Part shown: piece by piece, positions 2,711 to 3,722 of the stretch
How the letters are laid out: every line of letters begins with the position of its first letter
Numbering within the stretch: position 1 is the first letter of the stretch
From: a virus
Lineage: Duplodnaviria; Heunggongvirae; Uroviricota; Caudoviricetes
Strand: one strand, 5' to 3'
IMG/VR virus record: IMGVR_UViG_2690316131_000005
Length of the DNA stretch: 11,820 nt
The notes under the pieces: generated by a model
What the model was told of the DNA's origin: nothing
The model's database searches: none
Seen by the model: the letters and a program-made list of their open reading frames with translations, nothing else
Program-made: the position numbers and the translations under genes

Positions 2711-3722
2711 AAAGGTGAAAACCGGCAGTTCATCCAGTAAGTCAGTATTGACCTGGCTTGCTGATATGTGCGGTGCCGATTTGTGTGCGTACCCGTCTGT
2801 ATCTGCACTGGCAGAAGTAACGGAACTGAACAAAAAGACTGTGCAGGACAGCTTACGACACCTGATGGAGATTGGGTTAATTGTTGATACCGGTGAGAGA
2901 AAAGGCAGAACAAAGCAAATTGTGGTGTACCGACTTATCGGTGTAGAAGAAAGTGTTGCCGAGCCTGAATACACCCAAAAACGGGAGTCTTTAAAGGTGG
3001 GTAAAATTGGTGCTGTTAATAAAAACAGTACCGAAAATGGTTATGTTTCAGCACAAAACAGACCCAAAAACAGAACTCTTAGCTGCATGGAAAATAACCA
3101 AAGACACCCAAATTTTCCATCAAAGACACCCAAAAACGGATCACGGAACCCAAAGGAACCCAAAGATCTAAACCCCACACATAACGCACGCGAGAGTGCT
3201 CCGACCAGTGAGCAGGAAGTTTTGTCGTTACAGGCAGCCCCCCCTGTATTCCTGTATGGCCTGAGCGAACCCATCGGAAAATTCCCGATGAGCGATAGCT
3301 GGTATCCGTCACGGGATTTTCGACGACGGGCTGCGTTGTGGGGGATGGCTTTGCCGGAGACAGAATTTACACCTGCTGAACTTGCCGCCTTCCGGGACTA
3401 CTGGGCAGCGGAGGGGAAAGTGTTTACGCAGATTCAGTGGGAGCAGAAATTCGCCCGTCACGTAAATCACGTCAGGGCGCAGGTTAAACCAGTCAGCAAA
3501 GGGGTAAACCATGCAGCAGCACCAGGTGGCACCGCATCACGGGCAGTTCAGGAAATTCGGGCAGCACGTGAGCAGTGGGAACGTGAAAACGGATTTATCA
3601 GCGACGGAAACGGCCTGGAAGCTGTGGGAACTCATGGGGGTGGTTTATTCGAACCGCTGGATCCAGAAGAACGGGGCCGCACCTTCGAAGCTCTGGATTG
3701 CACAGATTGGCGCGATGACTGA
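2682..3722 (+). CDS. replication initiator, lambda O-like (N-terminal HTH domain, low-complexity linker, C-terminal DnaT-like segment)
   Basis: ATG at 2682 with AGGGG 5 nt upstream. N-terminus (MSIDALRWAKK...VLTWLADMCGADLCAYPSVSALAEVTELNKKTVQDSLRHLMEIGLI) is typical of phage replisome organiser domains; the linker is encoded by iteron-like repeats; sits immediately upstream of a P-like gene. Confidence 0.7.
   Translation: MSIDALRWAKKVKTGSSSSKSVLTWLADMCGADLCAYPSVSALAEVTELNKKTVQDSLRHLMEIGLIVDTGERKGRTKQIVVYRLIGVEESVAEPEYTQKRESLKVGKIGAVNKNSTENGYVSAQNRPKNRTLSCMENNQRHPNFPSKTPKNGSRNPKEPKDLNPTHNARESAPTSEQEVLSLQAAPPVFLYGLSEPIGKFPMSDSWYPSRDFRRRAALWGMALPETEFTPAELAAFRDYWAAEGKVFTQIQWEQKFARHVNHVRAQVKPVSKGVNHAAAPGGTASRAVQEIRAAREQWERENGFISDGNGLEAVGTHGGGLFEPLDPEERGRTFEALDCTDWRDD
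3061..3166. repeat. iteron-like direct repeats inside the O-like gene; candidate replication origin
   Basis: Core ACCCAAA occurs five times (about 3062, 3106, 3128, 3148, 3158). CAAAGACACCCAAA is repeated at 3099-3112 and 3121-3134; GAACCCAAAG is tandemly repeated at 3146-3165. Confidence 0.45.

Follow-up and report, generated by a model that had tools for sequence, protein, structure and literature searches.

Do the initiator and helicase-loader genes of a lambdoid prophage really share 212 nucleotides (nt) in two reading frames, or does one of them begin or end elsewhere? The question is raised by IMG/VR record IMGVR_UViG_2690316131_000005, an 11,820-nt stretch of Caudoviricetes DNA (the window), in which the open reading frame (ORF) of an O-like replication initiator runs out of frame into that of a P-like helicase loader. 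A preliminary description, made from the letters of the window, had placed the overlap at 3511-3722 and offered three explanations for it: a real dual-coding segment, a later start of P (3634 or 3715) or a frameshift in the 3' region of O. The coordinates proved exact. Comparison of homologous loci together with structure prediction leaves us confident that 3511-3722 is genuine, evolutionarily maintained dual coding, in which O would be read to the TGA at 3720 and P from the ATG at 3511. The features concerned are as follows.

2607-3722, plus strand: ORF of the O-like replication initiator, likely start ATG 2682, 346 amino acids (aa), stop TGA 3720-3722
3511-4176, plus strand: P-like helicase loader, 221 aa at full length, ATG start
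3511-3722, plus strand: dual-coding segment of 212 nt, comprising O codons 277-346 plus the stop and P codons 1-70; P is in frame +1 relative to O
3500-3513, plus strand: P start signals, with Shine-Dalgarno (SD) sequence AGGGGT at 3500-3505 and ATG at 3511-3513, in a Gly-rich O linker (..KGVNHA..)
3540-3587, plus strand: predicted O C-terminal helix (AlphaFold2), aa 287-302, RAVQEIRAAREQWERE, lying over the disordered P leader (P aa 10-26)
3597-3719: predicted disordered tail of O, aa 306-346 (AlphaFold2)
3511-3594, plus strand: P N-terminal leader, aa 1-28, variable (alignment A1) and predicted to be disordered (AlphaFold2)
3595-3711, plus strand: predicted first three helices of the P N-domain (29-46, 48-54, 60-67), lying over the disordered O tail
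3720-3722, plus strand: O stop TGA, within ATGACTGA (3715-3722)

Coding constraint in the overlap

O codons start at multiples of 3 in window numbering, and those of P are shifted downstream by one base. We evaluated the constraint on each frame in 26 genome loci as the third-position entropy of columns whose amino acid is conserved, after normalisation for codon degeneracy. In the 19 loci with DnaT-type initiators, and with no account taken of shared ancestry among loci in any of these entropy comparisons, O-frame third-position entropy was 0.77 where only O is encoded; it fell to 0.54 over the P leader (p=0.0017 versus 0.77) and to 0.11 over the P domain (3616-3719; p=1.6e-7 versus 0.77). 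The silent sites of O are frozen precisely where they are the second positions of P codons. Raw codon-position entropy is of the O type over P residues ~8-24, the O-frame pattern being present over the O helix, and of the P type from residue ~31 on, upstream of Met42. Together these alignments show that the constrained frame changes from O to P near nt 3600-3615. Two of the checks proposed in the preliminary description gave an answer: alignment with homologues revealed conservation of both frames within the overlap, and synonymous substitution patterns revealed suppression at O-frame sites (0.11 against 0.77), the reciprocal effect in the P frame not being significant.

O also stays open to an extent that chance explains poorly. 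There is no O stop before the 3720-equivalent in any of the 26 loci, and O ends 22-94 nt before the codons for the P motif WPPDL (58 nt before them in most Enterobacterales loci, 22-94 nt in the remainder). O homologues that normally end near 3510 had been named as an outcome that would count against the overlap; all 26 loci instead read 149-224 nt into P. When P was recoded synonymously with local codon usage, O remained open over the whole overlap in ~3.5% of trials per locus, and over its second half in 24%. Chance is a poor explanation because only ~3.5% per locus is expected, yet O is open in all 26 diverged loci. Three P codons carry a further sign of O-frame constraint: the third bases of codons 47, 52 and 53 are near-fixed, residues 47 and 52 vary, and O-frame Glu is thereby kept.

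The P residues encoded within O are maintained as well. Homologues of 215-223 aa that span the entire P ORF occur in Enterobacter, Klebsiella, Salmonella, Symbiopectobacterium and others, at identities down to 50-55%. In alignment A1 residues 1-35 are variable and strong conservation begins at ~36, where the stretch AWxLWExMGEIYSNRWTxKNGxxPSxLWIAQIG ranks among the best-conserved parts of the protein. W50, K53, N54, G55, P58 and W62 are near-invariant in the 215-223-aa homologues and are all encoded within O. In a HMMER search of the full library, cluster representatives at ~30% identity align to P residues ~20-110, and in eleven remote homologues (24-31% identity) W39, W50, G55 and W62 are invariant and Y46 nearly so. 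With the ATG and SD sequence also conserved, as described below, the dual-coding option of the preliminary description is the one that these data favour.

AlphaFold2 models place order and disorder in a complementary arrangement. O is predicted to consist of a winged helix-turn-helix (HTH; 1-88), a disordered linker (89-195) and a DnaT domain (200-267), followed by a C-terminal region made up of a disordered Gly-rich linker (269-285), a helix (287-302) and an acidic disordered tail (306-346). In P, aa 1-27 are predicted to be disordered (alignment A1; predicted local distance difference test, pLDDT, <50) and aa 29-105 to form a helical N-terminal domain (pLDDT ~80; helices 29-46, 48-54, 60-67, 71-86 and 95-105). 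The O helix maps over the disordered P leader (aa 10-26) and the disordered O tail over P helices (aa 29-70); in these models, each frame is ordered where the other is disordered.

We also considered a likeness between the end of O, LDCTDWRDD, and that of lambda O, LDLTNTDWIYGVDL. It was set aside as probably a by-product: in the window this end arises when the conserved P motif LWIAQIG is read in the O frame, and W and R alternate within it.

Where P begins

On profile, predicted fold and gene position, the window P belongs to the lambda P helicase-loader family (PF06992). The PF06992 Phage_lambda_P profile matches P aa 60-188 with 61.2 bits (cut-off 26), and sequence search recovered lambda P chains in the PDB at E=1.6e-6 (entries including 9oa1, 8v9t and 8v9s). 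The top Foldseek match of the model is lambda P chain 9oa1_Z of the DnaB-lambdaP complex (E=3.8e-5, 218 columns), and superposition on the crystal structure of the lambda P C-terminal domain (8v9s) gave a target template-modelling (TM) score of 0.89 and a root-mean-square deviation of 1.0; the whole-chain TM score against lambda P is just 0.38, inter-domain geometry not being comparable. P lies directly 3' of the initiator in an early-right operon (repressor, cro-like, ydaT-like, O-like, P-like). The preliminary description had argued that P reaches the length of lambda P only from 3511, and this is borne out by the 218-column fold match and by the phrog_109 'P-like helicase loader' profile, which matches from residue 19 (aa 19-220, E=1e-61).

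The signals at 3511 are conserved. The preliminary description had noted a good SD sequence; in the window it is AGGGGT, with a spacing of 6 nt from GGGG (3501-3504) to the ATG. An ATG is present at the 3511-equivalent in 28 of 28 Enterobacterales loci, in nearly all of which GGAGG, GGGGG or GAGG lies 6-11 nt 5' of it. The O residues at this site are poorly conserved, (H/N/Y)(A/V/E/G), and it is therefore the nucleotides of the ATG, not the O residues, that are conserved. No other conserved in-frame ATG, GTG or TTG was found between 3511 and 3634 in the genome loci with the overlap.

Database annotations of the P start differ widely. GenBank records of PPompW use 3754 (140 aa) and Citrobacter phage Chris1 carries a 136-aa form, while a start equivalent to 3715 (153 aa, within ATGACTGA) is used for Rac-SA53, phage pPE4 and RefSeq/PGAP in the records inspected. 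Other database clusters start P at 3634 (180-181 aa) or at 3511 (221 aa), the 221-aa protein being already present in some NCBI entries. The 153-aa RefSeq/PGAP version (inspected records) and the GenBank versions of 136-153 aa drop the P leader and three helices of the conserved domain, and the 153-aa form thus lacks the greater part of the N-terminal domain.

Two P-like genes in Erwinia lack an overlapping upstream gene and start 13-27 residues before the conserved Trp. These orphans (L025 2992-3618, L028 2971-3540) are intact and have no initiator upstream; one adjoins ttcA, the Rac attachment gene in E. coli, and the other a long membrane-protein ORF. They may be prophage remnants or domesticated genes.

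Some minor features of the P N-terminus were recorded along the way. Remote P-like leaders (L045-L124) often start M-(Q/E/K)-x-(I/V)-x-x-(L/I), as in MQHISELT and MKHINQLT, and resemble MKNIAAQM of lambda P (L037 983-1684), a hint of a short motif at the extreme N-terminus. Residue 44 of the window P (nt 3643) is Val, where the other 25 overlap loci have E, K, Q, G or R; the change is silent in the O frame (GGT versus GGA), and many O157:H7 and O55:H7 genomes carry the Val44 allele at 100% identity. Codon 51 (3662-3663) was noted alongside codon 44.

Distribution of the junction and rival explanations

The O/P junction was found in 1,253 of 5,426 complete E. coli genomes, about a quarter, with several copies per O157:H7 genome. 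It is present at ≥95% identity in 1,131 records of closed E. coli genomes, 523 of them at ≥99%. This layout recurs in Salmonella, Klebsiella, Enterobacter, Citrobacter, Pectobacterium, Buttiauxella and other genera, and insertions and deletions (indels) in the overlap are multiples of three.

A wider set, drawn from 80 IMG/VR loci and four metagenome loci, comprises 64 distinct loci that fall into 34 clusters at 60% identity. All 64 have an upstream ORF of 121-715 codons whose end lies from 76 nt 5' to 68 nt 3' of the W50 codon and which is always in frame +2 relative to P, in all 34 clusters. Upstream of W50 the P frame lacks stops over 132 nt or more, and upstream P starts, at about -120 to -207, give a predicted overlap with a median of 128 nt (range 32-236). 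An SD sequence of at least 4 nt precedes this upstream start in 48 of the 64 loci and the internal Met in 8. The phase is just as invariant in the 20 clusters whose upstream ORF stops short of the internal Met; a start at that Met would leave a spacer there, and thus no reason for a fixed phase. The four metagenome loci, which encode remote homologues of the P N-domain, have an upstream ORF in the same phase with an overlap of 44-161 nt, and the LSAxERVxAAN of their tails can be recognised as the helix that reads AVQEIRAARE in the window. More generally, the O helix motif AV(Q/E)x(I/V)RAAxE returns as LSAVERVRAAN in remote loci, where the upstream proteins have varied bodies (DUF1376, HTH_36, HNH-containing or none) and several downstream proteins pass PF06992.

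The overlapped DNA is not tied to one kind of initiator. A shared tail pattern (Gly-rich linker, S.AV.E(I/V)RAA.E.W, EPLD.EE(R/W), LD..DW.D) is followed by P on bodies of HTH_36+DnaT (window), HTH_36/DnaD_N with a lambda-O-like C-domain (L019), Phage_rep_O (L020) and DUF1376 (L022), and on bodies with no Pfam match (L021, L024, L026, L030). In BLASTP comparisons of these initiators with the window O, similarity begins only at nt ~3474-3537, which is the site of the P SD sequence and ATG; in E. coli, initiator bodies are also swapped farther upstream. These comparisons of sequence show the overlapped DNA travelling with P and joined to at least five different initiator bodies. Searched by itself at the protein level, the 65-aa O tail matched just fragments of close relatives; among phage records, tblastn with it returned 15, all with P next to it, and the tail was not found there without P.

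Initiators that accompany DnaC-like loaders, such as those of Rac YdaU/YdaV and its relatives, have a tail of their own. They end ..PDSAIPPGFRG, nearly matching the C-terminus of DnaT, on two different bodies, with the stop 6 nt before the loader gene. Those of K-12 Rac ydaU (L036 3120-3977) and L126-L205 end ..NTVSLPDSAIPPGFRG, or ..HISEPDTEIPPGFRG on a lambda-O-like body. A search for diverse DnaC-type loaders returned near-identical Rac copies only, still with two bodies bearing the IPPGFRG tail. In lambda-type modules (L031-L035) and lambda itself, initiators end ..TDWI.GV... with overlaps of 4 to ~26 nt. Across these sequences the initiator tail follows loader type and looks like a module specific to the loader; the P-type tail is alone in being encoded within the loader gene.

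Several observations weigh against dual coding of the whole segment from 3511. Over aa 36-70, variability at P-synonymous sites is not significantly below that downstream (0.70 versus 0.76, p=0.17), and because of this the greater part of the distal O tail may be tolerated as a run-on and not selected as a peptide; W and R alternate at its tip. With the O sequence given, chance alone would leave the P leader frame open in ~69% of cases, so that its openness proves nothing. The support for P initiation at 3511 is comparative and from predicted structure, the P starts in the 64 viral and metagenome loci being script predictions, and AlphaFold2 confidence for the O helix 287-302 is moderate. RefSeq and several GenBank records place P later, and Met42 is near-invariant and could act as an extra start.

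These points bear in part on an alternative in which P starts at an internal Met (3634, 3715 or 3754), the upstream P ORF is accidental and the true overlap is 0-89 nt. Annotators picked such starts, ATGACTGA at 3715-3722 resembles a classic coupling junction, and both the near-invariance of Met42 and the chance openness of the leader are in its favour. We nevertheless consider it improbable, given that conserved P residues including the invariant W39 lie upstream of both Met42 and Met69, that the P-type codon pattern begins at ~31 and that O-frame synonymous sites are frozen over 3616-3719. As a main start, ATG 3634-3636 (Met42) would cut into predicted helix 29-46, ATG 3715-3717 (Met69) would lose three helices and is Leu in 5 of the 26 loci, and ATG 3754-3756 (the 140-aa P) meets the same evidence. 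The orphan P genes start well before the conserved Trp, the SD sequence is kept at 3511 and not at the internal Met, and phase is fixed in the 20 clusters that would have no other overlap. The later starts at 3634 and 3715 offered in the preliminary description therefore do not hold as main starts; the P frame upstream of 3715 is the most conserved of the region, and the O-frame synonymous sites there are nearly invariant. Termination-reinitiation at 3715 giving a short P isoform, or initiation at 3634, is possible. Programmed frameshifting within the overlap, which would yield an O-P fusion (+1) or a P-leader/O-tail hybrid (-1), is far less probable still. It could draw on phrog_15931 (482 positions), which matches both O aa 161-345 and P aa 4-221, and on P0107, with O-like and P-like parts in one frame. 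Against this, most of the fused entries in databases are singletons that change frame several times, suggesting assembly errors or decay, and P has its own conserved SD sequence and ATG; no slippery heptamer X XXY YYZ was found in register in 3511-3722, the sole one, AAAGGGG at 3498, lying upstream as the SD sequence. An artefact, whether from a frameshift, a sequencing error or pseudogene decay in this prophage copy, has a probability close to nil. Long prokaryotic overlaps are often mispredicted (PMC2478687), the database proteins P0128, P0150 and P0152 are frame-hopping fusions and L027 and L034 are frameshifted (all of which resemble errors or decay), but the ≥95% identity of the junction in 1,131 closed E. 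coli records, the same layout in many genera and indels in multiples of three all speak against it, and hundreds of independent assemblies contradict an extra or missing base. The frameshift in the O 3' region that had been suggested can be dismissed likewise, since the arrangement recurs across numerous genera and in >1,250 closed E. coli genomes.

The alternative to be taken most seriously bears on function alone. It takes the overlap as real but without any selected role, a frozen accident in which O runs to the first stop in the P 5' region, the distal tail (3597-3719) is a dispensable, tolerated run-on and no docking takes place. The weak constraint at P-synonymous sites over aa 36-70, the W/R alternation at the tip and the predicted disorder of the O tail all fit, as does an earlier O stop in L021, L026, L030 and most remote loci (median 43 nt before W50). 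We regard this as unlikely, if less so than any of the preceding alternatives: the O helix over the P leader is kept from E. coli prophages to remote viral contigs, all 26 loci keep O open through the second half of the overlap where chance would give 0.24 per locus, fixation at three P third positions conserves O-frame Glu, and tail type follows loader type.

The fused entries merit a separate remark. phrog_15931 appears to be built on O-P fused ORFs, and P0107 (10 members) holds the end of a DnaT-like domain, an O-helix-like stretch and a P N-domain in one frame. Other fused entries (P0079, P0128, P0150, P0152) mostly look like frameshift errors.

A possible initiator-loader contact and the surrounding window

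Maintained dual coding at a boundary between replication modules allows us to hypothesise a function for the overlap. The C-terminal helix of O, perhaps with the acidic tail, could act as an adaptor that recruits the cognate P-DnaB to the origin. Encoding this adaptor inside the P 5' end would keep adaptor and loader joined during lambdoid module swapping, and the P ribosome-binding site within O would tie P synthesis to O translation, a link made likely by its position 212 nt inside O. Lambda P is toxic if over-expressed (PMC3640518), and coupling of P to O translation may matter for this reason. Lambda P binds DnaB through its C-terminal part (PMC6391071), its disordered N-terminal 'lassoes' have been speculated to engage O (PMC12661323), and deletion of its residues 9-86 abolishes replication initiation (PMC3640518). 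Read-through of the lambda O UGA gives a longer O' that ends in P N-terminal coding sequence, according to the account of Yates 1977 in PMC3640518, an early finding that offers a suggestive parallel.

For docking of the O helix on P and a cassette role of the overlap, the chances appear to fall somewhat short of even. Still more tentatively, the dual-frame DNA may encode both sides of the initiator-loader contact, with the O helix docking on the P leader and N-domain. Adaptor and loader would then form an indivisible mobile cassette that makes any origin-binding protein P-dependent, and the arrangement would be ancestral, the lambda 4-nt junction and O' being a reduced derivative. If this is true, the cassette arrangement is ancestral to a large family of phage replication modules. 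Lambdoid initiator-loader recognition has so far only been speculated upon, and a short, portable and conserved C-terminal O helix is a candidate adaptor. The overlap permits clean separation-of-function mutations, each silent in one frame.

The closest known system is lambda O-P. Gene order and operon position are the same, and the window P is a PF06992 protein with a predicted fold like that of lambda P; the candidate iterons of the window would, as in lambda, lie within the initiator gene. In contrast, the lambda genes share only ATGA (4 nt) and lambda O ends ..TDWIYGVDL as P begins, whereas the window O reads 70 codons into P without a stop; the initiator body is Phage_rep_O in lambda and HTH_36 + DnaT in the window. 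The lambda O' read-through peptide has no similarity to the window O tail.

Overprinted phage genes are well known, among them phiX174 D/E and A/B/K, lambda Rz/Rz1 and MS2 L. They share with the window two frames on the same strand, asymmetric constraint and enrichment of disorder in the overprinted parts. They differ in that a small accessory gene is there embedded in a larger one, whereas here the termini of two adjacent essential replication genes interdigitate, order over disorder, and the arrangement marks the boundary of a mobile cassette. Short coupling overlaps (ATGA, TGATG) likewise lie on one strand of one operon, link functionally related products and place the downstream ribosome-binding site in the upstream ORF, but measure 1-4 nt against 212 nt here. 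Overlaps of >60 nt are rare and usually annotation errors (PMC2478687); unlike these, the window overlap passes comparative tests.

DnaT and Rac YdaU-type initiators with DnaC-like loaders share with the window a DnaT-like domain and a modular body followed by a short C-terminal tail, and DUF1376 and lambda-O-like bodies are common to the P-type and DnaC-type groups. The DnaC-type tail, ..PDSxIPPGFRG, lies wholly upstream of the loader gene across a 6-nt gap, whereas the window tail is a helix and acidic stretch inside P.

Gene overlap and overprinting as such are well known; what is newly seen is a conserved long same-strand overlap at the module boundary of two replication genes. We found no earlier description of this initiator-loader overlap in the searchable literature, which is thin on subscription journals and thus gives weak evidence. 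The overlap is a well-supported long case (about 60-230 nt) kept across deep divergence in double-stranded DNA phages, among them prophages of many Enterobacterales besides E. coli. It coincides with a module boundary of mosaic recombination and sets order in one frame over disorder in the other.

The O-like initiator itself is best described by its profiles. Its start at ATG 2682 agrees with the annotation in PPompW prophages and RefSeq. Pfam detects HTH_36 (sub-threshold) and a DnaT domain (aa 201-267, nt 3282-3483) that finishes at nt 3483, shortly upstream of the overlap. The PHROG match is phrog_1032 'replication initiation protein' (E=9e-91), with weak 'replication initiation O-like' matches (1e-7 to 4e-12) over the N-terminal HTH; Pfam gave no match in the window O to PF04492, the Phage_rep_O N-terminal DNA-binding domain. 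On these profiles the protein is O-like in its working, yet outside the PF04492 family. A set of direct repeats lies in the predicted disordered linker (aa 89-195) between the HTH and DnaT domains:

2968-3164, plus strand: iteron-like direct repeats (A)CACCCAAA(AAC), 6-7 copies, within the O gene

The repeats are a candidate replication origin, positioned like lambda ori in O; their short core is not rarer than chance across the window.

The window represents the early-right region of an E. coli prophage of lambdoid (Rac/PPompW-like) type. Positions 2600-4250 are 99.8% identical to PPompW prophages of Shiga-toxin E. coli, and copies in O157:H7 and O55:H7 chromosomes are 100% identical over 3400-3830. 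Its genes include:

1464-1871, minus strand: CI-like repressor gene
1948-2175: Cro-like gene
2219-2710: YdaT-like gene
2682-3722, plus strand: O-like initiator gene
3511-4176, plus strand: P-like loader gene
4210-4944: DUF1627 gene
9293-9988: Q antiterminator gene

RusA, the Q antiterminator and tRNAs lie farther downstream in the window. A second, shorter overlap, of 29 nt, occurs where the end of the ydaT-like ORF (2219-2710) covers the start of the O-like gene (ATG 2682), and is the same in GenBank and RefSeq. Just 3' of the Q gene, 10184-10424 holds three tRNA genes, assigned by ARAGORN as Met-CAT, Lys-TTT and Arg-TCT, of which Rfam detected just two. Two further RNAs scored above the Rfam gathering threshold, namely a sok antitoxin RNA (hok/sok-type module) at 6751-6900 and the small RNA STnc100 at 11200-11372. 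Finally, a gene for a periplasmic solute-binding protein (SBP_bac_11) lies at 5804-6562 within the prophage early region and is a possible cargo gene.

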